Shown piece by piece: positions 31,349-49,411 of a stretch of DNA of 64,000 nt. Source of the DNA: Candidatus Omnitrophota bacterium (GTDB lineage Bacteria > Omnitrophota > Gorgyraeia > Gygaellales > Profunditerraquicolaceae); contig JBEKHW010000002.1 of the NCBI GenBank assembly GCA_050012075.1, positions 47,518 through 111,517 on the forward strand, written 5' to 3'. Below the pieces are notes generated by a model, which was not told where the DNA came from, did no database searches, and was given only the letters and a program-made list of their open reading frames with translations. The translations under genes and the position numbers were made by a program. Each line of letters starts with the position of its first letter. The stretch's first letter is position 1.

Positions 31349-31620
31349 TTTACAAAATTATAGGCTTAGTCGCAGCTACGCTTACCATGTTTTCATTTGT
31401 GCCGCAGATTATAAAGGTGATAAAGACAAAATCCGCGCATGATGTCAGTATAATTACACTCATCCAGCTTTCTCTGGGTGTAACCCTGTGGATTATCTAC
31501 GGACTGTATCTTAGGGATTTTATAATAGTGTTTGCCAATAGCGTGACACTCATCACGTTATTGATAATTTTGACGCTTTATCATAGATACGGAAGGAGAA
31601 AAAGCGCATTATGTCGGTAG
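31345..31620 (+). CDS. SemiSWEET / PQ-loop sugar transporter half-unit
   Basis: About 90 aa with 3 TM helices and the PQ motif ([12 protein letters not shown]). Start taken at the ATGA overlap with the rfbB stop. Confidence 0.55.
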
Positions 31621-32666: not shown

Positions 32667-34482
32667 TTACATATTAGGAATATCGGCTTTTTACCATGAT
32701 AGCGCAGCCGCGTTGATTAAGGATGGAGAAATAATGGCTGCTGTCCAGGAAGAACGCTTTAGCCGCAGGAAACATGATCCAGGGTTTCCTGTTAATGCGG
32801 TAAACTGGTGCCTGAAAGAAAACGCCATTACCGCGCAGGACCTTGATTACGTAGTATTCTACGATAAACCCTTCATAAAATTAGAAAGAATATTGGAAAC
32901 CGCTATGCGTTTTGCCCCTTCAGGAATAACCCAATTCATGCAATCAGTGCCTGTATGGTTAAAGGAGAAAATATGGGTCAGGGATATCATCTCAAAGAGT
33001 TTAGGTTACAAAGGAGAGATTCTTTTCTGTGAGCATCATGAATCTCATGCGGCCTCGGCATTTTATCCTTCTCCTTTTGAAGAGGCGGCGTTTTTGACTA
33101 TAGACGGCGTGGGGGAATGGGATACAGCCAGTTTTGGAATAGGTAAAGGCAGGGAACTCAAAATCCAGCATTCTTTGAGATTCCCGCACTCTCTTGGCCT
33201 GCTTTATTCAGCGTTCACATATTATACCGGTTTCAAAGTGAATTCCGGGGAATATAAATTAATGGGGCTTGCGCCATTTGGTGAGCCGGTTTATAAGGAT
33301 TTGATACTGAACGAACTGTTGGATTTAAAAGAAGATGGTTCTTTCCGGCTGAATATGAAATATTTTGGATTCTGCAATGGCCTCAGGATGACAAATCTGC
33401 GGTTTGATAAACTTTTTGGCACAAAGCCTAGAAAGCCGGAAACAAAAATCAGGCAGATAGATATGGATTTGGCCAGCTCTATCCAGCAGGTAACCGAAGA
33501 GATAATGTTACGGATCGCCCGCCATGTATATAAAGTTACCGGAAAAAACAAACTTTGTTTAGCAGGCGGCGTAGCCTTAAACTGTGTCGCAAACGGCAGG
33601 ATTTTACGCGAAGGGCCGTTTGAGGATATCTGGATACAGCCTGCCAGCGGAGATGCGGGAGGGGCATTGGGCGCGGCCCTGGCAATATGGCACAGGTATC
33701 TTGGCAAGGAGAGAAAGATTGCTTCAGCCGGGGATTCATTAAAAGGTTCATTTCTTGGCCCGGCGTTCACCGATGACGAGATAGAGGAATTCCTGAAAAA
33801 AGAGAAGGTTCCTTATGAACATATTGAAAGAGAAAGGCTGGTGGATTCTACTGCGGAGTTGATTGAAAAGCAGCATGTAATCGGCTGGTTTCAGGGCCGC
33901 ATGGAATTCGGCCCGCGCGCATTGGGGGCCCGTAGTATCATAGGAGATGCCAGGAACCCGAAAATGCAATCCAGGATGAACCTTAAGATTAAATTCCGGG
34001 AATCCTTTCGGCCTTTTGCCCCGACTGTTTTAAGAGAGCATACCTCAGAGTGGTTTGCGTTAGATAGAGCAAGCCCCTATATGCTGCTTACTGCCCCGGT
34101 GAAAAAAGAAAAAAGGCTGGAAGAGCAAAAAGAGAAAGAGGGGCCCAGAGGCCTGGATAAGTTAAAGATTTTCCGTTCGCCTATACCAGCAGTTACCCAT
34201 GTAGATTATTCCGCAAGGATACAGACCATAGAGCGCCGGGATAACGGGATTTACTATGATCTGGTCAGCGCTTTTTATAGAAGGACCGGCTGCCCCGTAA
34301 TTATTAATACTTCTTTTAATATACGAGGGGAGCCGATTGTCTGTACCCCGGAAGAGGCGTTCCGTTGTTTTATGCGTACGGATATGGATTATTTGGTTAT
34401 AGGCTCATTCCTGCTTGATAAAAGTAAGCAGAGGCTTTTAAATGAGAAAATCAGGCCGCTGGAATACCAGGAGCTGGATTGA
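32647..34482 (+). CDS. carbamoyltransferase (NodU/CmcH family)
   Basis: [21 protein letters not shown]ae1/YgjD-like N-terminal domain plus a C-terminal carbamoyltransferase domain. Start chosen at an internal ATG overlapping the upstream stop. Confidence 0.8.
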
Positions 34483-34715: not shown

Positions 34716-34874
34716 ATGGGCAAAATTTATCTGCTGAAGGAATTATGGGATTTTATGAAAATCAGAAAAAGATACTGGCTATTGCCGATTATTATTATTC
34801 TGACAATCTTTTCCATATTGATAATTTTTACCCAATCATCGGCAGTTGCGCCTTTTATATATACCCTATTCTAA
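34716..34874 (+). CDS. DUF5989-like small membrane protein (SxtK-like), absent from the ORF track
   Basis: 52 aa: MGKIYLLKELWDFMKIRKRYWLLPIIIILTIFSILIIFTQSSAVAPFIYTLF. GGAGGG RBS 5 nt upstream. The C-terminal ...SAVAPFIYTLF matches the recalled consensus of small proteins found downstream of carbamoyltransferases. Confidence 0.55.
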   Translation: MGKIYLLKELWDFMKIRKRYWLLPIIIILTIFSILIIFTQSSAVAPFIYTLF

Positions 34875-34875
34875 A

Positions 34876-36141
34876 ATGCCAAATAAATCTGAAATTATTT
34901 CTGGATTCTGTGACAGGATTGTTTATTGCGCGATAATCCTGCTTCCTTTTGTGGCGAGTTTTTCCTCTGCCGGGGTGGACGCCATGATCGGCATATCGGG
35001 ATTTTTCTTTTTGCTTAAAAAAATATTAAGGAAAGACCATTCTCCGGTAAATATCCCCATCTTAGGCGCTTTCATATGCTTAATAGTAATTTCCCTTGTC
35101 TCATTCTTTAATACCATAAATTTGAAATCAAGCATACATGGTATAGAGAAGCTGTTGAAGTATGGTATTTTATTTGTAACAGTGGCTGATTCGCTAAAAG
35201 ACAAAAAGCATCTCAAATGGATTTTGTTTGCTTTGATTTCAGGATTGGTTATGGCTTCCCTGGACGGTTTTTATTCGATGGTATTCGGAAAGGACCTATT
35301 CAGGCAGATGCCGCCTAATTATGTAATAGGGTTGATTCGTATCAGGGCCGCTTTTCCCGATGCCAATCTATTTGCAGGATACCTGGCTTTATTTTCTCCG
35401 GTATTGTTAGGAATTACACTTTATCATGTCAAGGGCCGCTTAAAAGGCATTATGCTTCTGGTTTCAGTCCTGGTTCTGGTCAACCTTATCTTTACCTTGT
35501 CGCGCAGTGCTATTTTCGGCGTATGGCTGGCCTTATTATTTATGGGGATACTGAAAAGGGATAAAGTAATTATTTTTTTGCTTATACTTTCGCTTTTAAT
35601 AACCCCTTTTATTATGCCGCGCCAGATTAAGGGATGGATAAACAGCTCGAATTCAATCTGGGAAGTTCTTTTAAATGGCGATAGTCAAAGCGCAGGGAGG
35701 TTGCCTCTTTTTAAGGTCGCGCTGGAAATGATTAAGTCCCATCCGTTTATCGGAGTAGGTGTCAATACCTTCAGCATTAACTTTAAAATCTATAAAGCCA
35801 TTGGTAAAATAGATTTTCCTTATCCAGGGGACTGGTATGCCCATAATATCTACCTGCACCTGCCTGCTGAAATTGGACTCGTTGGCCTTGCGATATTTTT
35901 ATATATGTTATTCCTGATTTTTAAGACATGGGTAAAGTTTAACCGAGAGACGCAAGACGCTTTCCTGAAAATTTCAGGCATGGGTATCATTGCCGGGATA
36001 ATCGCTTTTCTTGTTAATGGCTTAACCGAAACAAACCTTTATAATCCAAAAGTCGCCACCTTATTATTTTTTATGATCGGTTTATTCTTCGGTGTGAATA
36101 AAATCGCCAAGGGGGTAGTTTATGAAAAAAAACAAAACTAA
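34876..36141 (+). CDS. O-antigen ligase / O-antigen polymerase-like membrane protein (Wzy_C family)
   Basis: Polytopic protein with TLSRSAIFGVWLALL and a large periplasmic loop. Start chosen at the ATG 2 nt after the small ORF's stop. Confidence 0.55.
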   Translation: MPNKSEIISGFCDRIVYCAIILLPFVASFSSAGVDAMIGISGFFFLLKKILRKDHSPVNIPILGAFICLIVISLVSFFNTINLKSSIHGIEKLLKYGILFVTVADSLKDKKHLKWILFALISGLVMASLDGFYSMVFGKDLFRQMPPNYVIGLIRIRAAFPDANLFAGYLALFSPVLLGITLYHVKGRLKGIMLLVSVLVLVNLIFTLSRSAIFGVWLALLFMGILKRDKVIIFLLILSLLITPFIMPRQIKGWINSSNSIWEVLLNGDSQSAGRLPLFKVALEMIKSHPFIGVGVNTFSINFKIYKAIGKIDFPYPGDWYAHNIYLHLPAEIGLVGLAIFLYMLFLIFKTWVKFNRETQDAFLKISGMGIIAGIIAFLVNGLTETNLYNPKVATLLFFMIGLFFGVNKIAKGVVYEKKQN

Positions 36142-36907
36142 AGTTGTGATTCTTTGTGGAGGCAGGGGAACGCGTATTAGCGAAGAAACAGAGGTAATGC
36201 CTAAACCCATGATTCAGATAGGTGGCAAGCCCATCCTCTGGCATGTTATGAGGACTTATTCGCATTTCGGTTTTAACGATTTTATTATCTGTCTCGGTTA
36301 CAAGGGGTACGCGATTAAGGAATATTTCGCGAATTATTTCCTGCATTCTGCCGACGTTACGCTTGATTTAAGCACTAACAGCATGAAAGTCATCGGTTCA
36401 AAAGCCGAACCCTGGAGGGTGACGCTTATTGATACCGGACCCGATACACTGACTGGAGGAAGAATTAAAAGAGTAGAGGAATATATCGGTAAAAATACAT
36501 TTATGCTTACTTACGGTGACGGGGTGGGAAACATCAATATAAAAGAGTCGATGGACTTTCATAGGAAACACGGAAAATTAGCTACGATAACAGCCGTTCA
36601 GTTAGAAGGGAGATTCGGCGCCATTGAGATTAAAGGGCAAAATACGGTGGCTTCTTTCTGGGAGAAGCCCAAAGGTGATGGCGCCTGGATTAATGGCGGT
36701 TTCTTTGTCCTTGAGCCGGGTATCTTTGGTTACATTAAAGGCGATTGCACGTGGGAAAAAAAACCTTTGCAGAACTTGGGCAAAGACGGCCAACTCAAGG
36801 CGTTTAAACATAACGGATTCTGGAAATGCATGGATACATTACGGGATAAAATAGAATTGGAGCGGTTATGGGAGAGCGGGAAGGCGCCCTGGAAGCTAGA
36901 ACGGTAA
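36122..36907 (+). CDS. rfbF: glucose-1-phosphate cytidylyltransferase
   Basis: VVILCGGRGTRISEETEVMPKPMIQIGGKPILWHVM. Confidence 0.85.
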   Translation: MKKNKTKVVILCGGRGTRISEETEVMPKPMIQIGGKPILWHVMRTYSHFGFNDFIICLGYKGYAIKEYFANYFLHSADVTLDLSTNSMKVIGSKAEPWRVTLIDTGPDTLTGGRIKRVEEYIGKNTFMLTYGDGVGNINIKESMDFHRKHGKLATITAVQLEGRFGAIEIKGQNTVASFWEKPKGDGAWINGGFFVLEPGIFGYIKGDCTWEKKPLQNLGKDGQLKAFKHNGFWKCMDTLRDKIELERLWESGKAPWKLER

Positions 36908-38394
36908 ATCCTCTTTTTATTGCCGTCGTTCTGGGTATATCGGTTATTTTGGCTATTTTTATTTTACAGTATGGTAACATGCATGCTGATAGAAGATTAG
37001 CCGTCTCCGGCATAATAGTGAATGTTGCCTGGCAAATGCATTTGGGTTACAGGCCTTACCATGATTTTCTCACTAGTATTCCGCCGCTTTTTATAATGGG
37101 TTGTAAATATGCTTTTGATTTATGGGGGGTACGCTGGAATTCCTTGACTATTCTTACTCTCATATTTGCAGAAATTACATATCTCTCGCATGTGGCAATA
37201 CTCTATAAAATGAGGATTGGGAATTGGTGGAGCATTTTTCTGCCATTTACAGTACAATCCTTGACACTGCTTCTTTTTCCACGGTGGTGGTTTAACCAGA
37301 TTACTTCTGTTATAGGATGTCTTTTTATTTCCGCTTCACTATTATTATATAAGAAGCCTAAAGAAAATTTCAGTCAACTGGTTTTTTTGTTTATAGCCGC
37401 TTTTTTGTTGCTTACGAAACCGAATGTCATGATACCACTGGTGTTATTTACATTCCTGGTTTTTATAAGCATCCCGGGTTTCCGTCTTCTAATAGTCAAG
37501 CTGCTGGTTTCCGCGGCTCTTTTGGCCACACTTTTATTGCTATCGGCAAAAATTAATCCCTTTGAAGTTTTCTCAAGTTATATATCAGCTTCTGCTCCGG
37601 CCTCATTTAGATTACTTAAGCATCTTTTCTACTTTTTCCCTTTCGTAAATCATTCCTGGGAGCAGATTTTTATACTTTTTATCTTTTTTGTTCCTTGTCT
37701 TTTTGGCCTGGGGATCATTTTAGATTACGTTTTTAAGGCAGGTAAGAGTGCTATACCATATTTTGTATTGGCACTAGGAGGTGTAATAAGCGGTTTTGTC
37801 AGCATACTTACAAATCACGAGATCTTTCTTAATGGCATAGCAATAATTTTATTCAGTTTCGTTATTCCAATATTGCTCTTAAGGCCATATATGCCTGTGG
37901 GCCGGGATAGAATGCTAGTTTCTTATTTTTTGATGTTGAGCTTATTTCTCTTTACGGCAGATGGATTAATATCGATGAGGAGAAGATTAGAGTTAAAGCC
38001 TTCCTTAGTCCGGTTAGATTACCCTTTATTTTTTAAAGGCACGTATGCAACTCCCAGGTTAACCAGAATCCTGAAGCAGGTTGATGACGTGATTAAAAAG
38101 GAAGGATATGCCGGCCAATCAAATGCGAGTGTCTTCTTTGGATGGAATCTTGATTTCGCTTATGCGGTCTATGGAATACACCCTGCCATGAGGATGCCTC
38201 TATGGTGGGAGCCACAATTTAACACAAAGGAAATGATCCTGAGGTTTGAGAAGGAGCGTTTCAAAACAGCTGTTTTTTTTCGCGGAGAATACACTTATTT
38301 TCCTAAAGAATTAAAAGATTATTTGAATAAGGAATACGTGGTTTCTGATTATGGAGAGCTAACCGTGCATGAGTTGCGGCAGCAAAGTGATTAG
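36868..38394 (+). CDS. polytopic membrane protein of unknown function
   Basis: 508 aa with more than 10 TM helices. Start uncertain, as it overlaps the rfbF 3' end. Confidence 0.4.
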   Translation: MGEREGALEARTVNPLFIAVVLGISVILAIFILQYGNMHADRRLAVSGIIVNVAWQMHLGYRPYHDFLTSIPPLFIMGCKYAFDLWGVRWNSLTILTLIFAEITYLSHVAILYKMRIGNWWSIFLPFTVQSLTLLLFPRWWFNQITSVIGCLFISASLLLYKKPKENFSQLVFLFIAAFLLLTKPNVMIPLVLFTFLVFISIPGFRLLIVKLLVSAALLATLLLLSAKINPFEVFSSYISASAPASFRLLKHLFYFFPFVNHSWEQIFILFIFFVPCLFGLGIILDYVFKAGKSAIPYFVLALGGVISGFVSILTNHEIFLNGIAIILFSFVIPILLLRPYMPVGRDRMLVSYFLMLSLFLFTADGLISMRRRLELKPSLVRLDYPLFFKGTYATPRLTRILKQVDDVIKKEGYAGQSNASVFFGWNLDFAYAVYGIHPAMRMPLWWEPQFNTKEMILRFEKERFKTAVFFRGEYTYFPKELKDYLNKEYVVSDYGELTVHELRQQSD

Positions 38395-38408
38395 GGTGAG
38401 GTGAAGAT

Positions 38409-39389
38409 ATGGATAAGAATTTCTGGAAGGATAAAAAAATCCTGATAACCGGTTTTGAAGGATTCCTCGGGTCGAATCTGTCCAAGGCCTTACTTAAAAC
38501 AAAGGCAAAGGTGGTTGGCCTTGACATAAAAGTTTTGCGCAAGGAGACTTTATTTAATCAGGAAGATTACAGGAATATAACCGTATATAAAGGCAGCGTT
38601 ACCAATTACGGGCTTATTGAAAAAATCCTGCGTAAGCATTCTATAGACGTGGTTTTTCATCTGGCAGCAGAAGCTATTGTCGGCCGCAGCCACGGGGATC
38701 CCGTACGCGCTTTCCATGCCAATATCACTGGCACTTGGAGTGTTTTGGAGGCCTGCCGGAAGCAGGGGAGAATAGAGGCGGTTATTGTTGCTTCAAGCGA
38801 TAAGGCATATGGCGAACACGATAAGCTGCCTTATAAAGAAGGCTATCCTTTAGCCGCAAACCATCCTTACGATGTTTCAAAAAGCTGCGCTGATTTAATT
38901 GCCAATACCTATGCGCATACGTATGGCCTGCCGGTAGTTATTACGCGCTGTGGTAACATTTACGGCCCTGGCGATTTCAATTTTAGCCGCCTTATTCCTG
39001 ATATGATGAGGTGCCTTTTTAGGGACAAGACACTGCTCATCCGTAGCGACGGAAAATTTGTGCGTGATTATGTATATGTAGATGATATAGTAGAGGGATA
39101 TCTAAAGGCCGCAGAGCTTTTAAAAGCGCGCAATCTTGCGGGAGAGGCCTTTAACTTAAGCTATGAGAGGCCGATTACAGTGCTTGAGCTCTTGGCTAAG
39201 CTCGATACTTTGAAGGCTGTAACCAGGAAACCTAAGTATAAAATATTAAATCTGGCAAAATACGAGATAAGAAAACAATCCCTATTTTCCGGGAAGGCAA
39301 GGCGCATCCTGAAGTGGAAACCAAAATATAACCTAGAAGATGGCCTGAAGAAGACTCTGGCGTGGTATTTTAATTATTTTTCCAAATGA
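38409..39389 (+). CDS. rfbG: CDP-glucose 4,6-dehydratase
   Basis: MDKNFWKDKKILITGFEGFLGSNLS matches the RfbG N-terminus (NFW...TG..GF.GS). YDVSKSCADL (YxxxK). Confidence 0.75.
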   Translation: MDKNFWKDKKILITGFEGFLGSNLSKALLKTKAKVVGLDIKVLRKETLFNQEDYRNITVYKGSVTNYGLIEKILRKHSIDVVFHLAAEAIVGRSHGDPVRAFHANITGTWSVLEACRKQGRIEAVIVASSDKAYGEHDKLPYKEGYPLAANHPYDVSKSCADLIANTYAHTYGLPVVITRCGNIYGPGDFNFSRLIPDMMRCLFRDKTLLIRSDGKFVRDYVYVDDIVEGYLKAAELLKARNLAGEAFNLSYERPITVLELLAKLDTLKAVTRKPKYKILNLAKYEIRKQSLFSGKARRILKWKPKYNLEDGLKKTLAWYFNYFSK

Positions 39390-40129
39390 TGAGAGTGCAT
39401 TTTCTGGGAACGATGGGCTGGTATGATACGGAATTGGGCAATACCCTTTGTGTGCTCGTAGAAACTCCACGCGAATACGTTATTTTTGACGCTGGTAACG
39501 GCTTCGCAAAAGCCGACTCGTATTTAAGGAAAGATAAGCCGGTTTATTTATTCTTAAGCCATTTTCATCTTGATCATATAATAGGGCTGCACGCGCTCAA
39601 TAAATTTGACCTTCCGCAAGGCATCGATGTATTCGGGCCATCCGGGATAAAGAAGATGTTCAATCTTATTATTAATTCCCCGTATTCTAAGCCCCTAGCC
39701 AAATTAAAAACCAGGGTAAGGATAAAAGAGCTTTCTGGCAGGTTAAAACTTCCTATTGATATACAATTTAAGGAGTTAATCCATACCACTGTATGTTTCG
39801 GTTATCGGTTATCGTATAAAGGCAAAGTAGTGGCGTTTTGCACTGATACCGGCTTATGCAATAACCTCGCTTCATTGGCAAGGAATGCGGATTTGCTGAT
39901 CCTGGAATCGTCGTTGCGGCCGGGGGAACCTGACAGGGGCTGGCCGCACCTTAACCCGCAGCAGGCCGCCACAGTGGCAAGGAAGGGGTTTGCCGGGAAA
40001 TTGGCATTGGTTCATTTTGATGCCGCAGATTATTCGCGGGAAAGCGATATACAATCAGCGGGGACTGCAGCGCGGAAGATTTTTAAGAACACCATAACAG
40101 CAAGAGATGGCAAGTGTATAGAAATATGA
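39386..40129 (+). CDS. MBL-fold metallo-hydrolase
   Basis: FLSHFHLDHIIG (HxHxDH) motif. Confidence 0.6.
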   Translation: MMRVHFLGTMGWYDTELGNTLCVLVETPREYVIFDAGNGFAKADSYLRKDKPVYLFLSHFHLDHIIGLHALNKFDLPQGIDVFGPSGIKKMFNLIINSPYSKPLAKLKTRVRIKELSGRLKLPIDIQFKELIHTTVCFGYRLSYKGKVVAFCTDTGLCNNLASLARNADLLILESSLRPGEPDRGWPHLNPQQAATVARKGFAGKLALVHFDAADYSRESDIQSAGTAARKIFKNTITARDGKCIEI

Positions 40130-41337
40130 TTGCTTGTAAGCAGGAGATAAATATAAAAAATAACCGGTCATGTCCTGTTTGTGCTTCTGTAAAATGCGAA
40201 TCTTTAGGTAACCAGAAATTCGCAATTCCAAAAGGCCACCCTCTGCCTCAAGAATATAATATCGTAAGTTGCCGGAGGTGCGGTTTCGTATATGCCGATA
40301 CTCCTGCAATCCAGGAGAATTACAACAAATATTACCGCGAATTCTCAAAATATGAAGATTTGAAAATATCCTCTGGAGGAGGCATTAATAAGTGGGATTT
40401 AATCAGATTGAGAGATGCCACTGGCTTTATTTCAAGGTTTTTAAAAAACAAAAGTAGATCTATTCTGGATATCGGATGCGCTAACGGAGGCTTGTTGTCG
40501 GAATTAAAGAAAAGAGGATATTCTAATTTATACGGCATAGACCCTTCCCCAAAGTGCGTTTCTAATGTTAATAAGTTGGGGATCAAGGCGTCCAGGGGGG
40601 ATATCTTTTCAGTCACGAAAAATGTAAAAGAAAGAAAGTTCGGCTGCATAATTCTTTCTCATGTCTTAGAGCATATCTGCGATCTGAATTTGGCCATCAA
40701 TAATACAGCTTCTATTCTAGATAAAGATGGCATGCTGTATATTGAAGTCCCTGATGCCGCGAATTATTCTGAATGTCATGTTGTCCCGTATTATTATTTT
40801 GACTGTGAACATATCAATCATTTCGATATTGCCGCCCTGGATAACCTTCTATTATCTAAGGGGTTTGAACGTCTTGGTTTTCGGGAAAAAAGATTAAGGT
40901 TCATCAATAAGTTTTACCCGGTTATTTCAGCGGTGTATTTAAAGAATCCAGTTTCTTCTGTTCGCGCGGTATCTCCTGATTTCAGGACTAAGAACATCGT
41001 TAAGAGATATATCGCTGAATCTATGAAGAAAAATACTTACCCGCAAATATCAAAACTCATTAAGGGCAGGCAGGAAATCGTAGTCTGGGGGGCAGGGTCT
41101 TTTACCCTCAGGTTAATGGAAAATAATAAATTGGCGCAATGCAATATCAAATGTTTTGTTGATAATGATGCGAAGAAATATGGGAGTTCCATAAATAACA
41201 TTCCCATTTGCCCTCCACTGGAGATTCTGAACAATTTCAGGGGGCCGATACTTATTTGTTCAGCGCTATATTCTAAAGAGATCGTCATTCAGATAAAGCG
41301 GATGGGGCTAGATAATGAGATTGTCGTTCTTAATTAG
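40114..41337 (+). CDS. NDP-hexose C-methyltransferase-like (TylCIII-type architecture)
   Basis: N-terminal Zn-ribbon (CPVCAS...CRRCGF), central class I SAM methyltransferase motif LDIGCANGGLL, and a C-terminal Rossmann-like extension (VVWGAGSF). Confidence 0.55.
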   Translation: MYRNMIACKQEINIKNNRSCPVCASVKCESLGNQKFAIPKGHPLPQEYNIVSCRRCGFVYADTPAIQENYNKYYREFSKYEDLKISSGGGINKWDLIRLRDATGFISRFLKNKSRSILDIGCANGGLLSELKKRGYSNLYGIDPSPKCVSNVNKLGIKASRGDIFSVTKNVKERKFGCIILSHVLEHICDLNLAINNTASILDKDGMLYIEVPDAANYSECHVVPYYYFDCEHINHFDIAALDNLLLSKGFERLGFREKRLRFINKFYPVISAVYLKNPVSSVRAVSPDFRTKNIVKRYIAESMKKNTYPQISKLIKGRQEIVVWGAGSFTLRLMENNKLAQCNIKCFVDNDAKKYGSSINNIPICPPLEILNNFRGPILICSALYSKEIVIQIKRMGLDNEIVVLN

Positions 41338-41391
41338 AAATGAAGTTATTGGTAAAACCGGATAACTTATTTACGAAAAGGAATCTCGCAG

Positions 41392-42270
41392 ATGGATATA
41401 TTGATTACTGGCGGTAGTGGGTTTATCGGAAGAAACCTCGTAGAGTATTTAAGCTTAAAGCATAAAGTCGCCGCACCTTCTCATGCGGAGCTGGAGCTTT
41501 TGGATGAAGATGCGGTTAAAGGATATTTCAAAAGTCGTAATTTCGACACGGTAATCCATGCCGCAATCCGTCCAGGCCACCGTAATGCGAAAGACCCATC
41601 CAACGAGTTGTATCAGAATGCAAGAATGTTTTTTAATCTTATAAGGAACTCGAGCTCATTTAAAAAAATCATTGTCCTGAGCTCTGGTTTGGTCTATGAC
41701 CAGCGGTTTTATATTCCGAAAATGAAGGAGGAATATCTCGGTACGCATATGCCTGCAGATGAAGGTGGGTTTTCTAAATATATAATTGCAAAGTATATTG
41801 GAAAAATGGATAATGCCGTGGAATTGAGGGTATTCGGGATATTCGGTAAATACGAAGATTATGCGATAAGATTTATTTCAAACGCTATCTGTAAGACCAT
41901 TTTTGATTTGCCTATCACCATAAAGCAAAATCGTAAATTTGATTATGTTTATATCGAAGATTTCTTAAGGATTACAGAACATTTCTTGCAAAACAGTGGC
42001 AAGTATAGATCCTACAATATTACGCCAGACAGAGCAGTAGACCTCTATGAGCTTGCAAAAACAATTCGCAAGATATCCGGTAAGGATTTCCCTATTAAAG
42101 TTGCCCGGGAGGGGATGGGATTAGAGTATAGCGGGGATAATGCGAGATTACGGCAGGAGATGCCAGTTTTTAAGTTTATGCCGGTAGAAGCTGCAATAGA
42201 AAAACTCTATGCGTGGTATTCAGAAAATAAATCAAGCATTAACAAAGAGTTCTTACTCTTTGATAAATAG
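41392..42270 (+). CDS. NAD-dependent sugar epimerase/reductase (GDP-fucose synthase / CDP-abequose synthase-like)
   Basis: ILITGGSGFIGRNL and ELELLDEDAVKGYFKSRNFDTVIHAA. YIIAKY (YxxxK). Confidence 0.55.
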   Translation: MDILITGGSGFIGRNLVEYLSLKHKVAAPSHAELELLDEDAVKGYFKSRNFDTVIHAAIRPGHRNAKDPSNELYQNARMFFNLIRNSSSFKKIIVLSSGLVYDQRFYIPKMKEEYLGTHMPADEGGFSKYIIAKYIGKMDNAVELRVFGIFGKYEDYAIRFISNAICKTIFDLPITIKQNRKFDYVYIEDFLRITEHFLQNSGKYRSYNITPDRAVDLYELAKTIRKISGKDFPIKVAREGMGLEYSGDNARLRQEMPVFKFMPVEAAIEKLYAWYSENKSSINKEFLLFDK

Positions 42271-42311
42271 AAAGATTCACTAAATTAGTCACAAAAAATG
42301 GGGAGGTTGGC

Positions 42312-43403
42312 ATGAATAAGGATATTTTTGAAGATTTGTTTGTCCTTGAATTAGCTAACAATCACTACGGAAAACTGGAGAGGGGGTTAAAGATTATCAC
42401 TGAATTCTCCAGGATAATCCGGTTCAATAATGTCAGGGCTTCGATTAAGCTTCAAATCAGGGATGTGGATAATTTCATACATAAGGCTTTTCGTAACAGT
42501 ATTGATATACGTTATATTAAAAAAACGCTGGACACCAAAATGCCCAAAGAGAACTTTGAAACTATGGTGCAGTTTATCAGGAAGAGCGGGTGCATACCAT
42601 CGGCAACGCCTTTTGATGAAAAATCCGTTGATTTTTGTTCTGAGCTGGGTATCCAGATTTTAAAAATTGCCAGCTCCGACTTAAATGACTGGGTGTTAAT
42701 AGAAAAAATCGCGAAGACCAAGAAACCGGTTATCGTATCCACGGGGGGCTCGTCCTTGAAAGACCTTGATGACTTAGTTGTTTTCTTTGAAAATAGGAAT
42801 ATCCCGCTTGCCATAAACCACTGCATAGCATTATATCCTTCTGAAGATTGCGAACTCGAACTCAATCAGCTAGATTTCTTGAAGAATAGATACCCAAACC
42901 ATACGATAGGCCTGTCTACTCACGAATATCACGATTGGGTTTCTTCAATAATGATTGCTTATGCTAAAGGCGCGAGGACCTTTGAAAGGCATATAGATAT
43001 AGATGACGGGCAATATGAAATTTCTCCTTATTGTTCTTTGCCGCATCAGGTAGATGCCTGGTTTAAGGCGTTCAAAAAGGCAAAAGAAATGTGTGGCGCC
43101 TCCGGTACATCTAAGAGAATGCCATCTGAGAAGGAAACTGAGTATCTCAATGCCCTTGTCAGGGGTGTATATGCCAAAAAGAATCTGCCTGAAGGATATG
43201 TATTTCATCATGAAGATATAGAGCAGGATATTTACTTGGCGATACCGTTACAGAAAGGGCAGATTTCCTGTAGAGAATTGATGAGTGGAGAAGTTCTATT
43301 GAGGGGATGCAAGAAAGATGAACCCATAACTATTGATATGATAGACAGCCCTTACGCTAACAATGAGGATTTAAAGAAGGTAATATACAGCAGGGGATTA
43401 TAA
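42312..43403 (+). CDS. N-acetylneuraminate synthase family protein (NeuB/PseI/SpsE-like)
   Basis: VLELANNHYGKLE TIM-barrel N-terminus plus a C-terminal SAF-like domain. Family-level call only. Confidence 0.45.
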   Translation: MNKDIFEDLFVLELANNHYGKLERGLKIITEFSRIIRFNNVRASIKLQIRDVDNFIHKAFRNSIDIRYIKKTLDTKMPKENFETMVQFIRKSGCIPSATPFDEKSVDFCSELGIQILKIASSDLNDWVLIEKIAKTKKPVIVSTGGSSLKDLDDLVVFFENRNIPLAINHCIALYPSEDCELELNQLDFLKNRYPNHTIGLSTHEYHDWVSSIMIAYAKGARTFERHIDIDDGQYEISPYCSLPHQVDAWFKAFKKAKEMCGASGTSKRMPSEKETEYLNALVRGVYAKKNLPEGYVFHHEDIEQDIYLAIPLQKGQISCRELMSGEVLLRGCKKDEPITIDMIDSPYANNEDLKKVIYSRGL

Positions 43404-43413
43404 GAGGCAGGGT

Positions 43414-45222
43414 ATGATAAAAGTTACAGATTATATAGCAAAACGGCTTGCCGATAGTGGAATCAGGCATATTTTTATGTTGACCGGCGGCGGGGCTATG
43501 CATCTTAATAATTCATTGGGGAAGGATAAATATCTCAAATGTGTTTTTAATCATCACGAACAGGCCTGCGCTATTGCTGCAGAGGGTTATGCCAGGATAT
43601 CCGCTAAGCTAGGAGTAGTTAATGTTACTTCCGGGCCAGGGGGATTAAATACTTTGACCGGAGTTATGGGGCAGTGGACCGATTCAGTACCCGTGTTATA
43701 TATATCCGGTCAGGTCAAACTCGAAACAAGTATCTCTTCTTGTCCTGATATCGGATTACGGCAGCTTGGCGACCAGGAAGTGGATATCGTCAACATAGTA
43801 AAGCCGATAACAAAATTCGCGATTATGGTTAAAAATCCTAACGAGATAAAAAGAATACTTGATAAAGCTATATACATAGCTACGCATGGCCGGCCCGGAC
43901 CGGTATGGATTGATTTGCCTCTTGATGTTCAGGGAGCCGTGGTTGATGAGAGTAAAATGCTAGGGTATGATAAAAAAGAGGCCGCCATATTTAATGATGC
44001 CGATCTCCTGACTAAAGTGCCGCAAGTAATTAAGTTGATTAAGGCATCGCATCGTCCGGTCATTTTAGCCGGATATGGTATCCGCATTGCGAATGCGCAG
44101 GAATTATTCCTGGAACTGGTAAATAAATTGAAGGTGCCGGTTTTATCTACCTTTAACGGCCAGGACCTTATAGCAAGCAATCATCCTTGTTTCATAGGAA
44201 GAATAGGTACCCAGGGAGACAGGGCGGGTAATTTTGCCCTTCAAAATTCAGATCTGTTATTATCAATTGGCTCACGAAATAATATCAGGCAGGTTAGTTA
44301 TAATTGGAAAACTTTTGCCCGGGAAGCTAAAAAAGTAGTAGTTGATATAGACCCTGCAGAGTTACAGAAAAGCACTTTAATCCCTGATATCGCAGTACAT
44401 TCTGATGCCAGGTATTTCCTGGAAAATATGTCCAAAGTTTTAGAAAAAACCGGTCTGCCAGGATGGAATAAGTGGTTACGCTGGTGCATTGAGAGAAAAA
44501 ATAAATATCCCGTGGTTATTCCTAAGTACAAAAAATCCAAGAAAATCAATCCGTATTATTTTATCAATCTTTTAAGCGAATGCATAAAAGAAAGAACTGT
44601 TGTCGTTACCGGAAATGGCACGGCAAGTGTATGCTATTTCCAGGCCGCCATGGTTAAGAAGGGGCAGAGGATTATAATGAATTCCGGTTGCGCGGCTATG
44701 GGGTATGATTTACCGGCTGCGATAGGCGCTTGTTTTGCCAGTAGCAAAAAAGATATTATTTGTATTACAGGAGATGGCAGCATCCAGCTGAATATCCAGG
44801 AGCTACAGACTATAATCCATCATAAACTGCCGATAAAAATATTTGTTTTAAATAATGACGGGTATATTTCCATAAGGCAGACTCAAAAGAGTTTTTTTGG
44901 TTTACCGTATGTAGGCTCCGGCAGAACGTCTGGATTGAGTCTTCCCGATATGGGCAAGATCGCAAAGGCTTATGGCATAAAATCATACACTATCGATAAA
45001 AATCACGGCATAAGGATAAAGATAAAACGCATACTTGATTGCAGGGGTCCGGTTATCTGTGAAGTAAAACTCGACGATAACTATAAATTCATGCCGAAAT
45101 TATCTTCAGAAAGAAAGCCGGATGGAAGAATTGTTTCTAAGCCTATTGAGGATATGTCCCCATTTTTAGAGCGAAAAGAATTTAAGGGCAATATGCTCGT
45201 ACCGCTGTATCGGGAGAAATAA
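43414..45222 (+). CDS. thiamine diphosphate-dependent enzyme (acetolactate synthase large subunit-like; YerE-like candidate)
   Basis: The three ThDP-enzyme domains, with the ThDP-binding GDGS...NNDGY motif near the C-terminus. Confidence 0.75.
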   Translation: MIKVTDYIAKRLADSGIRHIFMLTGGGAMHLNNSLGKDKYLKCVFNHHEQACAIAAEGYARISAKLGVVNVTSGPGGLNTLTGVMGQWTDSVPVLYISGQVKLETSISSCPDIGLRQLGDQEVDIVNIVKPITKFAIMVKNPNEIKRILDKAIYIATHGRPGPVWIDLPLDVQGAVVDESKMLGYDKKEAAIFNDADLLTKVPQVIKLIKASHRPVILAGYGIRIANAQELFLELVNKLKVPVLSTFNGQDLIASNHPCFIGRIGTQGDRAGNFALQNSDLLLSIGSRNNIRQVSYNWKTFAREAKKVVVDIDPAELQKSTLIPDIAVHSDARYFLENMSKVLEKTGLPGWNKWLRWCIERKNKYPVVIPKYKKSKKINPYYFINLLSECIKERTVVVTGNGTASVCYFQAAMVKKGQRIIMNSGCAAMGYDLPAAIGACFASSKKDIICITGDGSIQLNIQELQTIIHHKLPIKIFVLNNDGYISIRQTQKSFFGLPYVGSGRTSGLSLPDMGKIAKAYGIKSYTIDKNHGIRIKIKRILDCRGPVICEVKLDDNYKFMPKLSSERKPDGRIVSKPIEDMSPFLERKEFKGNMLVPLYREK

Positions 45223-45295
45223 CCAGAACTATATTCGGATTACAGTATTATAAGGATATGGCCAAGTAAATACGTATATTTACGGGGTTTAGAAA

Positions 45296-46606
45296 ATGGA
45301 AAAAGCCAAACAATTAAAAAGGGAAATATTTAAGAATGTAGCAAAGTTCTATAAAGCGAATAAGCAAAAGGATAGGTTTATTCCGGGAAAGACCCACATA
45401 AATTATGGAGGAAGGGTCTTTGATGAAGAAGAAATAATAAATCTCGTTGATTCTGCTCTTGAATTCTGGCTGACCGCCGGCAGGTACGCCCATGACTTTG
45501 AAGAAAAATTAGCTAAGTTTATAGGGGTAAAGTACGGTATCCTCACTAATTCCGGCTCATCGGCAACCCTTTTAGCTATATCGAGCCTGACTTCACCGCT
45601 ATTAAAGGAACGAAGGCTTAAGCCGGGGGACGAAGTCATCACTACTGCCTGTGGTTTTCCCACGACACTTAACCCTATATTACAGAACAATCTGGTTCCG
45701 GTTTTTGTTGATGTGGATTTGGGGACTTATAATATTCAGGTGCATAAAATTGAAAAGGCGATATCCAATAAGACAAAAGCAATCTTTATTGCCCATACCT
45801 TGGGTAACCCCGTAGATCTGGATCAGATTGCGAAGGTTGTGAACAAACATAAACTCTGGTTTTGCGAAGACAACTGTGATAGTCTGGGCTCAAAATATAA
45901 AGATAAATATACAGGAAACTTCGGGGATATTTCCACCTGCAGTTTTTATCCGCCCCATCATATCACTATGGGAGAGGGCGGGGCTGTTTTGACCAGCGAC
46001 CCGCTATTGAAGAAAATAATTATTTCTTTTCGTGATTGGGGAAGGGATTGTTATTGCGAAACAGGGAGCGATAATACCTGCAAAAAAAGGTTTAACCAGA
46101 AATTCGGAGATTTGCCTTATGGCTATGACCATAAATACGTGTATTCGCATATAGGTTATAATTTAAAAGTTACCGATATGCAGGCAGCTATAGGAGCGGC
46201 GCAATTAAAGAAATTACCGGGGTTTATTGAGGCGAGAAAGAAGAACTTTAAATTCCTCTATAATGTTTTTCAAAAATATGAGGATTGTTTTATACTTCCG
46301 CAGGCAGAGAAATATTCCGATCCAAGCTGGTTTGGTTTCCCGGTTTTAGTAAAAGACACAGCCCCATTTAATAGGGCGGATATCACTAGTTATCTGGAGG
46401 AGCATAAGATTGCTACAAGAATGCTTTTTGGCGGGAATTTATTAAAGCAGCCAGCTTATAAAAACATAAAGCACAGGGTAGTAGGAGATTTAAGAAATAC
46501 TGATTTAGTTATGAATAATCTGTTTTGGATAGGAGTTTATCCGGGGCTTACAAAGCCGATGCTATCTTATGTGGAGAGGATTTTACATAATTTCTTCAGA
46601 AAATGA
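45296..46606 (+). CDS. rfbH: CDP-6-deoxy-L-threo-D-glycero-4-hexulose-3-dehydrase (E1, DegT family)
   Basis: DegT-family N-terminus FWLTAGRYAHDFEEKLAKFIGVKYGILTNSGSSA. 436 aa. Cys spacing C-X57-C-X1-C-X7-C (..DNC...RDCYCETGSDNTC) is consistent with the E1 [2Fe-2S] motif. Confidence 0.7.
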   Translation: MEKAKQLKREIFKNVAKFYKANKQKDRFIPGKTHINYGGRVFDEEEIINLVDSALEFWLTAGRYAHDFEEKLAKFIGVKYGILTNSGSSATLLAISSLTSPLLKERRLKPGDEVITTACGFPTTLNPILQNNLVPVFVDVDLGTYNIQVHKIEKAISNKTKAIFIAHTLGNPVDLDQIAKVVNKHKLWFCEDNCDSLGSKYKDKYTGNFGDISTCSFYPPHHITMGEGGAVLTSDPLLKKIIISFRDWGRDCYCETGSDNTCKKRFNQKFGDLPYGYDHKYVYSHIGYNLKVTDMQAAIGAAQLKKLPGFIEARKKNFKFLYNVFQKYEDCFILPQAEKYSDPSWFGFPVLVKDTAPFNRADITSYLEEHKIATRMLFGGNLLKQPAYKNIKHRVVGDLRNTDLVMNNLFWIGVYPGLTKPMLSYVERILHNFFRK

Positions 46607-47304
46607 ATACGAAACTGACGATTATTATAGGCTGTTTTAATGAAAAACCTACCATCTTAAAAGCTATTGAAGAAGCCAAGGCATTAAAGATTGATAAGGA
46701 AATAATTGTTATAGATAACGGCTCAACCGACGGCACTAAAGAAATATTAGAAAGTTTGAAGGATGATAAGTCGCTTAAAATAGTTTTTCATTCCAGAAAT
46801 ATGGGTGCTGGATATAGCGCATGCGAAGGAGTTTATCTTGCTAAAGGTGCCTACCATTATGGCCCCGGAGCCGACCTAGAATATAAAATGGATGATGTTT
46901 ATAAGATGATAGATAAAATGGAGAAAGAAGATTTAGATGTTGTATTCGGCTCAAGGCTGGCAGATAGAAAGAATGTCTCTCGTATTGCCTTGATTAAGGA
47001 AAGGCCATATTGGCTTGGGTCTATCATCGCGACGTCTTTAATAAATATATTATACCGTAAGAATTTTACCGATATTATAGGTACAAACCTGATCAAAACC
47101 AGTGTTTTAAAGGAAATTAACTGTAAAGATTGCAGTCAGGCTTTTGCATTTGAGTTGGTAAGTAAGCTTTGTAAGGGCAGGTATAGAATCGGGGAAATCC
47201 CCGTTTATTACAAGCCCCGGACACATAAAGAAGGAAAAACCATACGAGTTTTTGATATGATCCCGGCACTTTTGGCGATCTTAAAGGTGAAGATTTTTGG
47301 TTGA
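46603..47304 (+). CDS. glycosyltransferase family 2
   Basis: IIIGCFNE...IIVIDNGSTDGT. Confidence 0.7.
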   Translation: MNTKLTIIIGCFNEKPTILKAIEEAKALKIDKEIIVIDNGSTDGTKEILESLKDDKSLKIVFHSRNMGAGYSACEGVYLAKGAYHYGPGADLEYKMDDVYKMIDKMEKEDLDVVFGSRLADRKNVSRIALIKERPYWLGSIIATSLINILYRKNFTDIIGTNLIKTSVLKEINCKDCSQAFAFELVSKLCKGRYRIGEIPVYYKPRTHKEGKTIRVFDMIPALLAILKVKIFG

Positions 47305-47317
47305 AGAGACATAAATA

Positions 47318-49408
47318 ATGTTGAACTCAATATTATTAAATTTAATCGTAATTGCAAGTGCAACAATTTTAGTTAAGTGTCTTTTCAAATTTAGCGAATG
47401 GTATGATTATATTCTTGCAGCTTTTATACTATTTTTTGCTCAAATAGTTTTGATTGAACTTTTCTTGGGTACTATCAAACTGTTTTATATTCGAGAAGTT
47501 TTTTTGGCACAGCTATTAATTTTTCTGATAATTTCCTTAATCTATTTTAAGAAAAAATCATCCCCCTTTATAAAACCGGATATAAGCTTTTTTATAAACA
47601 GTAATTTACTCCTTTTTGCTTTTTCGGTTTTTTTGGCATTTTTTTGTGTAAAGGCATTCGTTAATCTGATTAATCCACCGGTTAGCCCTGATAGTCTGCA
47701 GTATCATCTTGCCTTCCCGGCTGCTTGGATAAGAAGCGGAAGATTAGATAATCCATTTAATATATTTGGAGCAGTATTTATTTCTGGTCAGAGGTCATTA
47801 GAAACCAGCGGTATCTCTTATTTTCCCATCAATGCAGAGTTATTCTTTGCATGGCTTATGCTACCTTTAAGGAATGCCTTTTTGGCCGACTTAGGAGAGG
47901 CCCCATTTTATATTATCGGGATAATAGCGATATACTCAATACTAAGGAAATATGCAGTAAATAAAAGAATTGCTTTATTAAGCGGTTTTCTCTGGGTTCT
48001 TATCCCGAATATTTTTAAGCAGCTTAAAACGGGCTCCCAGATAGATGTAATATGTGCGGTGTTATTGTTTTTGTTAGTTGATACCCTGTTACTGCTTAAG
48101 CAGGAATTTACCTTCAAGAACGCAATCTTGTTTGGGATTTCTGTTGGACTTTTTGTGGGGACCAAGTTCACTAATATAATCTGGTTAGCTGCCTTAATCC
48201 CGCTAATCTTTTATTTATTATATAGGGGGGTTAAAACAAATAAGTTTGGGGTAGAGAAAATAGTTGTTTTATTTAGCAGTATTATCTTAATGGTTATTTT
48301 ATTTGGCGGCTATATGTTTATAAAAAACTTTATTTTTACCGGCAACCCTTTATTTCCTAACCAGATAATAATCTTTGGCAAGACCATATTTAGGGGTTTG
48401 TCGAATGTAGCTACTTATAAAGTGCTATATGCCGCAGGTGATACATTTAATTTGAAGAGGATATTTTTTGCAGAGGGTTTAGGCGCGCAGCTTTTACTCT
48501 TAATTTTACCTGGTATGTTTGGGTCACTAGTTTTCTTGGGATATTCAAGGAGAAGGTTACGTCCTTTTGGAGAGTATTTATTACTTTTTATTACTCCGTT
48601 TATAATGCTCATACTCTACAGGATTTCTCTTGATGTATATGCAGTGCGCTATCTTTTTCCACTTATAAGCATGGGGTTAATAACTGCTGTTATCTTTATG
48701 GCCCAATTACCTCGCGCAGATAAGTATTTTACGTTTATTTCATTCATATCAATTTCTGCTTCGGCTTTTGAATTAGCCCATCGGTACGAGCTTATTTTTT
48801 CGCTTTTACTTTCATTGGCATTATTTATAACGCTGGTCCTTTATAAGAAGCAAATTATTGCATTCTATAAAAGCAATGTGTCTGGTAAAGTTATGGTTAT
48901 TATATCAGTGTCAGTGTTAATATTTTTGGCGTATTTTAATGGGAAATATAATAAGGAAGAATTTAAACGTTACCCTTTCGGTCCTAGTAAAAAAGACCAA
49001 TGGCTGCAGATGGATATAGGAAAAAGCTGGCAGTGGCTTAATGAACAGACTAAAGAAGGCTCGCGGGTTGCCTATACCGGCTGCCAAGAGTTCTATCCTT
49101 TATTTGGTTCAAGGCTTAAAAATGATGTGAAATATGTTTCTGTCAATGAAAAGGAAGCCACCCCTTACAATAAACCAGATGGGTTATGGAGAAAAAATAA
49201 GAATTTCCATGCCTGGCGGGAGAATCTAAAAAGAGAAAAAATCGAGTATCTATATATTGCGCTTCCCTTCCCTGATAATAGGGAATCGGAAGGTCCTGCT
49301 AAGTTTCCCATTGAAGACGAGTGGGCCTTGTCGCACCCTGAAGATTTCCAGTTATTATTTAGTAATCCATTGTCACACATATACAGGGTTTTAATCCCTG
49401 CTAAATAG
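47318..49408 (+). CDS. large polytopic membrane protein, possible GT-C glycosyltransferase
   Basis: 696 aa with about 14 TM helices and a soluble C-terminal domain. Confidence 0.4.
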   Translation: MLNSILLNLIVIASATILVKCLFKFSEWYDYILAAFILFFAQIVLIELFLGTIKLFYIREVFLAQLLIFLIISLIYFKKKSSPFIKPDISFFINSNLLLFAFSVFLAFFCVKAFVNLINPPVSPDSLQYHLAFPAAWIRSGRLDNPFNIFGAVFISGQRSLETSGISYFPINAELFFAWLMLPLRNAFLADLGEAPFYIIGIIAIYSILRKYAVNKRIALLSGFLWVLIPNIFKQLKTGSQIDVICAVLLFLLVDTLLLLKQEFTFKNAILFGISVGLFVGTKFTNIIWLAALIPLIFYLLYRGVKTNKFGVEKIVVLFSSIILMVILFGGYMFIKNFIFTGNPLFPNQIIIFGKTIFRGLSNVATYKVLYAAGDTFNLKRIFFAEGLGAQLLLLILPGMFGSLVFLGYSRRRLRPFGEYLLLFITPFIMLILYRISLDVYAVRYLFPLISMGLITAVIFMAQLPRADKYFTFISFISISASAFELAHRYELIFSLLLSLALFITLVLYKKQIIAFYKSNVSGKVMVIISVSVLIFLAYFNGKYNKEEFKRYPFGPSKKDQWLQMDIGKSWQWLNEQTKEGSRVAYTGCQEFYPLFGSRLKNDVKYVSVNEKEATPYNKPDGLWRKNKNFHAWRENLKREKIEYLYIALPFPDNRESEGPAKFPIEDEWALSHPEDFQLLFSNPLSHIYRVLIPAK

Positions 49409-49411
49409 CCT

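Follow-up and report, generated by a model that had tools for sequence, protein, structure and literature searches.

A NeuB-family synthase as candidate donor supplier for a proposed acyl-branched dideoxyhexose in a surface-glycan operon of an Omnitrophota bacterium

In a 64-kb stretch of DNA from a Candidatus Omnitrophota bacterium (contig JBEKHW010000002.1; the whole 64,000 nucleotides are called the window below), we studied an operon that combines genes for a cytidine diphosphate (CDP)-linked 3,6-dideoxyhexose with two adjoining genes, one for a NeuB-like protein of the phosphoenolpyruvate (PEP)-dependent synthase family and one for a thiamine diphosphate (ThDP)-dependent enzyme resembling the yersiniose carboligase YerE. 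Comparative genomics shows that NeuB-like genes of this kind are linked to such ThDP genes almost without exception, and that NeuB-like genes and pyruvate aldolase genes exclude one another beside them. We infer that the NeuB-like enzyme replaces a pyruvate aldolase to which it is not homologous, and that the operon makes an acyl-branched 3,6-dideoxyhexose by the erwiniose/caryophyllose scheme with donor supply by the NeuB-like enzyme, a reading to which we assign a probability of roughly 0.6. The first-pass annotation of this DNA had listed the NeuB-like enzyme among the remaining genes of a dideoxyhexose module; it appears instead to accompany the ThDP enzyme almost obligatorily, in the place of a pyruvate aldolase.

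Linkage was scored in 59 non-redundant NeuB-centred loci of at least 15 kb, gene content in 61 and aldolase occurrence in 69 NeuB-centred loci, alongside a ThDP-centred set of 80 metagenome loci picked by similarity to the window ThDP protein, 32 of which are at least 12 kb long. A ThDP homologue (45–62% identity) was found within 4.5 kb of the NeuB-like gene in 58 of the 59 loci, at a median distance of 0.7 kb, the two genes being adjacent in 21. About 42 of the 61 NeuB-centred loci contain RfbH, RfbF and a 4,6-dehydratase, and further company includes a short-chain dehydrogenase/reductase (SDR) of the window type or an alternative type (46/59), a GtrB-like family 2 glycosyltransferase (GT2; 44/61) and a haloacid dehalogenase-type (HAD) phosphatase (35/61). 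RfbH was likewise seen in 23 of the 32 longer ThDP-centred loci, with or without a NeuB-like gene.

Among the same 32 loci, 21 carry only an HpcH/HpaI aldolase, 7 only a NeuB-like gene, none both and 4 neither (Fisher p = 1e-4); where the NeuB-like gene is missing, the neighbour of the ThDP gene is typically the HpcH/HpaI aldolase, often together with an HAD phosphatase. No HpcH-type aldolase was found in any of the 69 NeuB-centred loci or in the window, and no HMGL-like/DmpG domain in the scanned open reading frames (ORFs) of the window. The replacement can be followed in syntenic clusters: one locus (L031) has the order SDR–ThDP–adh_short–dehydroquinate synthase (DHQS)-like–FGGY kinase–NeuB–HAD, two others (L097 and L099) have the order SDR–ThDP–HpcH aldolase–adh_short–DHQS-like, and the ThDP proteins of L031 and L097 are 77% identical. 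A second kind of aldolase fills the slot in the locus of JanthE (structure 8rph; PMC12188165), which is a carboligase of the YerE-like kind from Janthinobacterium sp. HH01. There, genes for an acetaldehyde dehydrogenase and an aldolase of the DmpG type come after RfbF–RfbG–RfbH–JanthE–SDR, a pair of the ErwI/ErwJ type known from erwiniose (PMC9306805). Taken together, the near-obligate ThDP linkage, the mutual exclusion with pyruvate aldolases of two kinds and the exchange seen in syntenic clusters point to the NeuB-like enzyme as an aldolase substitute.

According to the proposed pathway, RfbF would form CDP-glucose, a 326-amino-acid (aa) SDR would convert it to CDP-4-keto-6-deoxyglucose, and the 3-dehydrase E1 (RfbH) would remove the 3-hydroxyl group to give CDP-4-keto-3,6-dideoxyglucose. 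The NeuB-like enzyme would condense PEP with an aldehyde, R-CHO, possibly phosphorylated in many related loci, to a 4-hydroxy-2-oxo acid, R-CH(OH)-CH2-CO-COOH, which the ThDP enzyme would decarboxylate, adding the acyl anion to the C-4 ketone of the sugar to give a tertiary alcohol with a 3-hydroxyacyl branch. A 292-aa SDR would then reduce the branch ketone, methyltransferases would decorate the sugar, and a GT2 together with a 696-aa membrane protein would hand it to a surface glycan. The NeuB-like, ThDP, SDR, methyltransferase and glycosyltransferase steps are predictions, as is the CDP specificity of the dehydratase. In the unifying scheme of Steitz et al. (2022), long acyl branches begin with a 4-hydroxy-2-oxo acid from a pyruvate aldolase, which a YerE-like enzyme couples to CDP-4-keto-3,6-dideoxyglucose before a reductase finishes the branch, and the YerE-like proteins ErwE, MMAR_2332 and MyGE accept such acids from pyruvate aldolases (PMC9306805). 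A NeuB-type reaction would fit this scheme, since it gives the same class of compound as a pyruvate aldolase, and the frequent HAD phosphatase, joined in some loci by an FGGY kinase, suggests that the aldehyde or the product is phosphorylated. The first-pass annotation had compared the ThDP enzyme with YerE and its two-carbon branch; with a NeuB-like enzyme in the aldolase slot, a branch longer than that of yersiniose is expected.

The NeuB-like enzyme might alternatively act after the ThDP enzyme, extending a short aldehyde branch, or a sugar released from CDP, with PEP to a higher-carbon sugar of the ulosonic acid type. This would agree with the one-sided dependence of the two genes, in which the NeuB-like gene needs the ThDP gene and not the reverse, and hydrolases of the HAD or metallo-beta-lactamase (MBL) fold could dephosphorylate or release the intermediate. 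It leaves unexplained, however, why, in syntenic clusters with ThDP proteins of 77% identity, the slot of the NeuB-like enzyme is filled by aldolases, no cytidylyltransferase was found that would reactivate a released ulosonic acid, and aldolases precede the ThDP step in the characterised systems (PMC9306805), so that we regard this order of reactions as unlikely.

The NeuB-like protein retains an intact NeuB-type active site, as judged from alignment: its residues E13, K118, S121, S143, H204 and H227, invariant in the alignment of its clade (A1), correspond to E25, K129, S132, S154, H215 and H236 of N. meningitidis NeuB, which we take to be catalytic, PEP-binding and metal-binding, and a SAF-like region is present at the C-terminus. 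It scores far under the equivalog cutoffs for PseI (119.5 vs 340 bits) and NeuB (114.3 vs 400 bits), and its best solved relative is 3g8r (213 bits, with PseI at 79 bits), an uncharacterised protein bearing a structural-genomics name only. Its homologues form a separate clade that keeps 69–84% identity across very distant lineages (among them Microcystis, CPR3, Myxococcota, Acidobacteriota, Planctomycetota, Verrucomicrobiota, Bacillota, Chloroflexota, Patescibacteria and Spirochaetota), and a genome scan found relatives in at least 589 species genomes. The protein resembles NeuB, PseI and LegI in fold family and in the PEP- and metal-binding positions, and differs from them in its low scores and in its surroundings, which lack CMP-activating and amino-sugar precursor genes: no CMP-ulosonic acid synthetase (CTP_transf_3), PseB-type dehydratase or hydrolysing 2-epimerase was found among the scanned window ORFs, and neither a CMP-ulosonic acid synthetase nor a PseB-type gene was seen in the called genes of three related loci (L001, L002 and L004). 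That the whole clade, spread over at least a dozen phyla and at least 589 species genomes, works as a PEP-dependent 4-hydroxy-2-oxo acid synthase and not as a sialic-acid-type synthase, feeding YerE-like carboligases and repeatedly displacing pyruvate aldolases, seems to us about an even bet.

The same data bear on a yersiniose-type alternative, in which the ThDP enzyme would use pyruvate for a two-carbon branch and the NeuB-like enzyme would serve an unrelated ulosonic or nonulosonic acid pathway nearby. YerE uses pyruvate (PMC9306805, PMC12247030), JanthE accepts it in vitro (PMC12188165), and a PseC-like aminotransferase, though well under its family cutoff, is encoded 6 kb downstream. Linkage in 58 of 59 loci combined with aldolase exclusivity is nevertheless hard to ascribe to coincidence, and both the distance of the NeuB-like protein from PseI and NeuB and the lack of CMP-ulosonic acid synthetase, PseB-type dehydratase and hydrolysing 2-epimerase genes in the window argue against such a pathway, making this alternative improbable.

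By sequence, the window ThDP protein is a YerE-like enzyme. It carries an HEQ motif with the catalytic Glu49 and a GDG-x26-NN motif at residue 453, and among solved structures it matches JanthE best (412 bits), through the common C-terminal tail, followed by 5ahk (281 bits), which is deposited as "acetolactate synthase II" and which we take to be PpYerE, and by acetohydroxyacid synthases (AHAS) at up to 254 bits, the margin of 5ahk over the latter being small. All NCBIfam acetolactate synthase models stay under cutoff (best 399 vs 538), and no gene for a small AHAS subunit was found with the ThDP gene. The YerE-like assignment made in the first-pass annotation therefore held up under profile-level subfamily comparison, no firm clustering with IlvB being seen, and an IlvB-type AHAS was rejected on these scores. 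Carboligation onto the C-4 ketone is the activity predicted for the protein by analogy with ErwE and JanthE, which add their donors to ketone acceptors.

An ordinary O-antigen cluster of the abequose, paratose or tyvelose type, beside which an IlvB-type acetolactate synthase happens to be encoded, is consequently barely credible: acetolactate synthases do supply the top NCBIfam names of the ThDP protein, and a tyvelose-epimerase-like SDR is encoded at 31611, but those matches are below cutoff and outscored by YerE-like structures, the small subunit was not found, and the ThDP gene lies inside the sugar operon in an arrangement kept across phyla. The ThDP protein could also be a 2-oxo acid decarboxylase that provides the NeuB-like enzyme with its aldehyde, the product being a free chain-extended keto acid unattached to the dideoxy sugar, which would suit the tight linkage that persists where rfbFGH are not nearby (a Microcystis locus and Rhodocyclaceae loci). 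Against this, the protein groups with YerE-like carboligases, RfbH accompanies the ThDP gene in 23 of 32 ThDP-centred loci irrespective of the NeuB-like gene, and in the window the ThDP gene sits between the NeuB-like gene and E1; we consider a decarboxylase very unlikely.

The CDP-3,6-dideoxyhexose front end proposed by the first-pass annotation, consisting of RfbF, a 4,6-dehydratase and E1, was borne out, with RfbF and E1 passing their family cutoffs. The identities of these two enzymes are established by sequence. RfbF is 61% identical to its Salmonella counterpart, and the sequence of the E1 crystal structure 3bcx matches the window E1 at 549 bits. The E1 segment SFYPPHH (216–222), whose aligned counterpart in Yersinia and Salmonella is SFYPAHH, places His221 where aminotransferases have the Lys that binds pyridoxal phosphate, and the [2Fe-2S] motif C194-x57-C252-x-C254-x7-C262 has the spacing of Salmonella RfbH (C193/C251/C253/C261). 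An ordinary aminotransferase, which the first-pass annotation had kept in view for this 436-aa DegT-family protein, is excluded by His221 and the Cys motif.

The enzyme between them, earlier named RfbG, is indeed a 4,6-dehydratase-type SDR of the front end but scores under the RfbG equivalog cutoff. Besides a YxxxK motif (YDVSK), it shows 28% identity to Salmonella RfbG and scores 159 bits against solved dTDP-glucose dehydratases vs 125 and 122 bits against solved CDP-glucose dehydratases, its SSDKAYG segment aligning with STDEVYG of the dTDP-glucose enzymes. An Asp-Lys acid/base pair presumably marks the CDP-type dehydratase. In related cassettes, either this SDR type or a canonical RfbG stands beside RfbF and RfbH, as alternatives, and it is this context, given the failed RfbG cutoff, that suggests a role as CDP-glucose 4,6-dehydratase and a specificity for CDP.

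A partner reductase for E1 (E3, AscD) is not found in the window, as the first-pass annotation had remarked: no Fer2, FAD_binding_6 or NAD_binding_1 domain occurs in window ORFs of at least 120 aa, and a tblastn search with Salmonella E3 (annotated in its rfb region, L086) gave no window match at E <= 1e-3. The absence is no peculiarity of the window, however, because E3 is missing from nearly all related loci (84/85 NeuB-centred loci, with a single weak match to the Salmonella query, and all 80 ThDP-centred metagenome loci). It was not found in the JanthE locus or an Azospirillum rfbFGH locus either, and is present in a Pseudomonas extremaustralis relative (L170). The classical enterobacterial ddh cluster of Salmonella encodes E3, whereas the window does not, and rfbH without E3 is common outside such clusters. 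Electrons for the window E1 would come from a reductase encoded elsewhere. SpnQ-type homologues of E1 are said to work without a dedicated E3; SpnQ resembles the window E1 as a 3-dehydrase without an encoded partner, presumably served by general ferredoxin/flavodoxin reductases, and differs from it in using a TDP-sugar and in belonging to secondary metabolism.

Several observations weigh against the proposed pathway. The ThDP proteins of NeuB-type and aldolase-type loci interleave, which is expected if both routes yield similar donors but is not proof of it; a division of ThDP clades by donor module was ruled out, as nearest neighbours mix NeuB-type and HpcH-type loci. In about one third of the NeuB-like/ThDP loci, rfbF, rfbG and rfbH are missing within 10 kb, so that the acceptor may differ there or be encoded elsewhere. 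When the ORFs of 60 loci were all clustered de novo, the clusters gave no families besides those known before and no conserved enzyme for making an aldehyde. An HAD phosphatase such as accompanies the NeuB-like gene in 35 of 61 loci is missing from the window, whose one HAD protein was rejected as the cassette phosphatase for being GmhB-like. In addition, the 326-aa SDR misses the RfbG equivalog cutoff (TIGR02622), no E3-type electron donor for E1 was found in the window, and the function of the NeuB-like clade as 4-hydroxy-2-oxo acid synthase is predicted by analogy.

Related loci also showed features of their own. A short-chain dehydrogenase (16/32 ThDP-centred loci) and a DHQS-like protein (13/32) form a conserved pair by YerE-like ThDP genes that accompanies either an aldolase or a NeuB-like gene (L097, L099, L031, L004 and L001 among others; e.g. 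L099:12850-14336). The locus of Microcystis sp. MC19 (L001; CP020664.1, 1755149-1776246) encodes NeuB-like, ThDP, methyltransferase, SDR, HAD, FGGY, DHQS-like, GT2 and GtrA proteins, with an IS1 transposase inside the cassette and no rfbF, rfbG or rfbH within 10 kb; its acceptor may differ or lie elsewhere. In Pseudomonas extremaustralis (L170:4025-11833), E3, RfbF, RfbG and RfbH are followed by two ThDP enzymes in tandem, of 572 and 610 aa, and a DmpG/acetaldehyde dehydrogenase pair; the tandem enzymes may make two different branches or carry out two successive carboligations.

The genes studied occupy one tightly packed + strand stretch (~34846-50131), in which cassette genes overlap by up to 51 bp or are separated by at most 74 bp, spacing that is consistent with a single operon. 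All ORFs named in the first-pass annotation were recovered in place on the + strand (Table 1).

Table 1. Features of the operon and of the surrounding glycan region (window positions; single numbers are the positions given for the gene).
Feature	Position	Strand	Basis or remark
RmlA, RmlD-like protein, RmlB	28706-31348	+	RmlA and RmlB above equivalog cutoffs
RmlB, clear-cut, separate from cassette dehydratase	30359	+	NCBIfam
SemiSWEET-like protein, 102 aa, three-helix	31312-31620	+	MtN3_slv / PQ-loop; between rmlB and tyvelose-epimerase-like SDR
Tyvelose-epimerase-like SDR	31611-32666	+	nearest solved is CDP-tyvelose 2-epimerase, 124 bits; next family 69
NodU/CmcH-type carbamoyltransferase	32569-34482	+	in glycan cluster
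RfbF, glucose-1-phosphate cytidylyltransferase, makes CDP-glucose	36122-36907	+	TIGR02623 403 bits, cutoff 300
508-aa multi-pass membrane protein	36868-38394	+	~8 hydrophobic segments, C-terminal soluble part
326-aa NDP-hexose 4,6-dehydratase-type extended SDR (non-canonical RfbG)	38409-39389	+	TIGR02622 205 bits, cutoff 278
MBL-fold hydrolase (RNase Z-like / phosphodiesterase-like)	39386-40129	+	Lactamase_B_2
407-aa S-adenosylmethionine (SAM) methyltransferase	40114-41337	+	Methyltransf_23; distant collinear relative of NDP-sugar 3-C-methyltransferases
292-aa extended SDR	41392-42270	+	Epimerase, RmlD_sub_bind domains; YxxxK
NeuB-family PEP-dependent synthase, candidate donor supplier	42312-43403	+	Pfam NeuB PF03102, 126 bits
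YerE-like ThDP-dependent carboligase (predicted activity)	43414-45222	+	TPP_enzyme_N, M, C domains
E1, RfbH/DdhC, CDP-6-deoxy-L-threo-D-glycero-4-hexulose-3-dehydrase, 436 aa	45296-46606	+	NF011936 717 bits, cutoff 423
233-aa GT2, possibly polyprenyl-phosphate sugar synthase	46603-47304	+	Glycos_transf_2; weak PpgS, AglJ matches far under cutoff
696-aa multi-pass membrane protein, possibly GT-C-type transferase	47318-49408	+	~12 hydrophobic segments, ~150-aa C-terminal soluble domain
239-aa class I SAM methyltransferase, end of cassette	49412-50131	+	Methyltransf_11
PseC-like aminotransferase	52275	+	239 bits, cutoff 423; 6 kb downstream
HAD protein, GmhB-like	56084	+	sole HAD of window

Directly upstream of the ThDP gene in L031, L097 and L099, or of the NeuB-like/ThDP pair in the window and a sister Omnitrophota cassette (L006), lies the gene for the 292-aa SDR, to which no solved structure comes close (highest score 40 bits). 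The first-pass annotation had read this protein as a 4-reductase or epimerase. Since ThDP-dependent addition at C-4 would leave no 4-keto group, it is better read as a predicted YerF-like ketoreductase acting on the side chain, at C-1'.

The 407-aa protein had been described as a C-methyltransferase of TylCIII architecture, an assignment that stays tentative. Its PF08484 match reaches 16.9 bits, under the 23.5 cutoff, and PF08421 was not detected, although an N-terminal CxxC...CxxC is present. Along profile positions 92-368, which cover the SAM and C-terminal domains, the family profile (A3) matches D-mycarose 3-C-methyltransferase (4rv9) with E = 2.6e-13, and there are further collinear matches to KijD1 (5t64) and TcaB9 down to E = 3.1e-9; the top match is a plain methyltransferase, 3cc8. 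A C-methyltransferase is thus plausible, and homologues in only 17 of 61 related loci indicate a variable decoration.

For the 508-aa and 696-aa membrane proteins, no Pfam match, even at permissive thresholds, and no NCBIfam match was obtained, and no homologue of the 508-aa protein was found in related loci. Homologues of the MBL-fold protein occur in few related cassettes (L004, L005, L006, L099 and L136). Conservation in L006 extends to the GT2 (77% identity), the 696-aa protein (61%) and the 239-aa methyltransferase (68%), with the GT2 and the methyltransferase in the same position, and in related cassettes PMT_2/GT-C proteins adjoin a GT2. This resemblance of the GT2 and 696-aa protein to GT2/GtrA/PMT_2 sets elsewhere suggests delivery of the sugar through a polyprenyl-phosphate intermediate.

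The window has a G+C content of ~42% and is a bacterial chromosome segment. From ~28706 to 57777, every gene lies on the + strand and has envelope-glycan functions, including, besides those in Table 1, a Wzy_C protein, heptosyltransferases, further glycosyltransferases and GmhB. The SDR between RmlA and RmlB is weakly RmlD-like (47 bits vs a cutoff of 224) and no RmlC was seen among the scanned window ORFs, so the dTDP-sugar made by this region may not be rhamnose. The SemiSWEET-like protein, of a sugar-transporter type, is unusual company for a glycan cluster. The enzyme at 31611, first described as CDP-paratose-epimerase-like, does have CDP-tyvelose 2-epimerase as its nearest solved relative, and the carbamoyltransferase suggests an O-carbamoylated sugar.

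Outside this region, a 696-aa fusion of a GT4/GT1 glycosyltransferase and a radical SAM domain is encoded at 3681-5771 (+), flanked by a DUF483 protein and by two more radical SAM proteins, of which one contains a SPASM domain (neighbouring genes at 23-1417 (+), 1600-2694 (-) and 2716-3675 (+)). Tandem paralogues of GalT/HIT-like nucleotidyltransferases (GalP_UDP_transf, DUF4921, DUF4931) lie at 60888-61913 and 61916-62917 (+).

Compared with known systems, the window cluster would belong to the acyl-branched sugar clusters of the YerE type, its donor slot being filled by an enzyme class new to them. It shares with the erwiniose, caryophyllose and gastriose clusters (ErwE/ErwI/ErwJ/ErwF, MMAR_2331-2332 and MyGE/MygI/MygF; PMC9306805) the genes for CDP-4-keto-3,6-dideoxyglucose, a YerE-like carboligase, a surface-glycan setting and, as predictions, an NAD(P)H reductase and a donor-building enzyme. 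In those clusters a pyruvate aldolase, belonging to the DmpG/BphI or the HpcH/HpaI/citrate-lyase type, makes the donor, whereas the window has a PEP-dependent NeuB-family synthase, and no branched sugar has been assigned to its cluster type. The JanthE locus resembles the window in having RfbF, RfbG (a non-canonical one in the window), RfbH and an SDR and no E3; it differs in the DmpG aldolase and acetaldehyde dehydrogenase that it carries without a NeuB-like enzyme, and in JanthE itself, which has CDG where the window ThDP protein has the canonical GDG. The yersiniose A system of Yersinia pseudotuberculosis (YerE/YerF) likewise combines 3-deoxygenation by E1 with subsequent ThDP-dependent branching at C-4 of a CDP-sugar, but YerE takes pyruvate, adds a two-carbon branch and needs no donor-synthesis enzyme. 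Full-text searches of the available literature for a link between NeuB-like enzymes or sialic acid synthases and ThDP branching or branched sugars returned nothing relevant. More than 200 YerE-like clusters were surveyed in silico in 2024 (work cited in PMC12247030), and that survey may already mention NeuB-type clusters.

If the proposed pathway is correct, it would give a function to a large NeuB-family clade now called "N-acetylneuraminate synthase" in databases, for a relative of which a structure (3g8r) already exists, and a NeuB-like gene beside a ThDP gene should accordingly not count as evidence of sialic acid biosynthesis. To ThDP-based acyl-branched sugar formation it would add a third donor route, PEP-driven and irreversible, with a phosphorylated intermediate in many lineages and delivery by polyprenyl-phosphate and GT-C proteins, and the enzyme pairs could serve biocatalysis as a source of chiral tertiary alcohols. 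It would also predict new branched sugars for bloom-forming Microcystis as well as for many uncultured phyla, and imply that Omnitrophota, Acidobacteriota, Planctomycetota, Microcystis and other bacteria carry an undescribed, widespread class of higher sugars with long branches on their surfaces.

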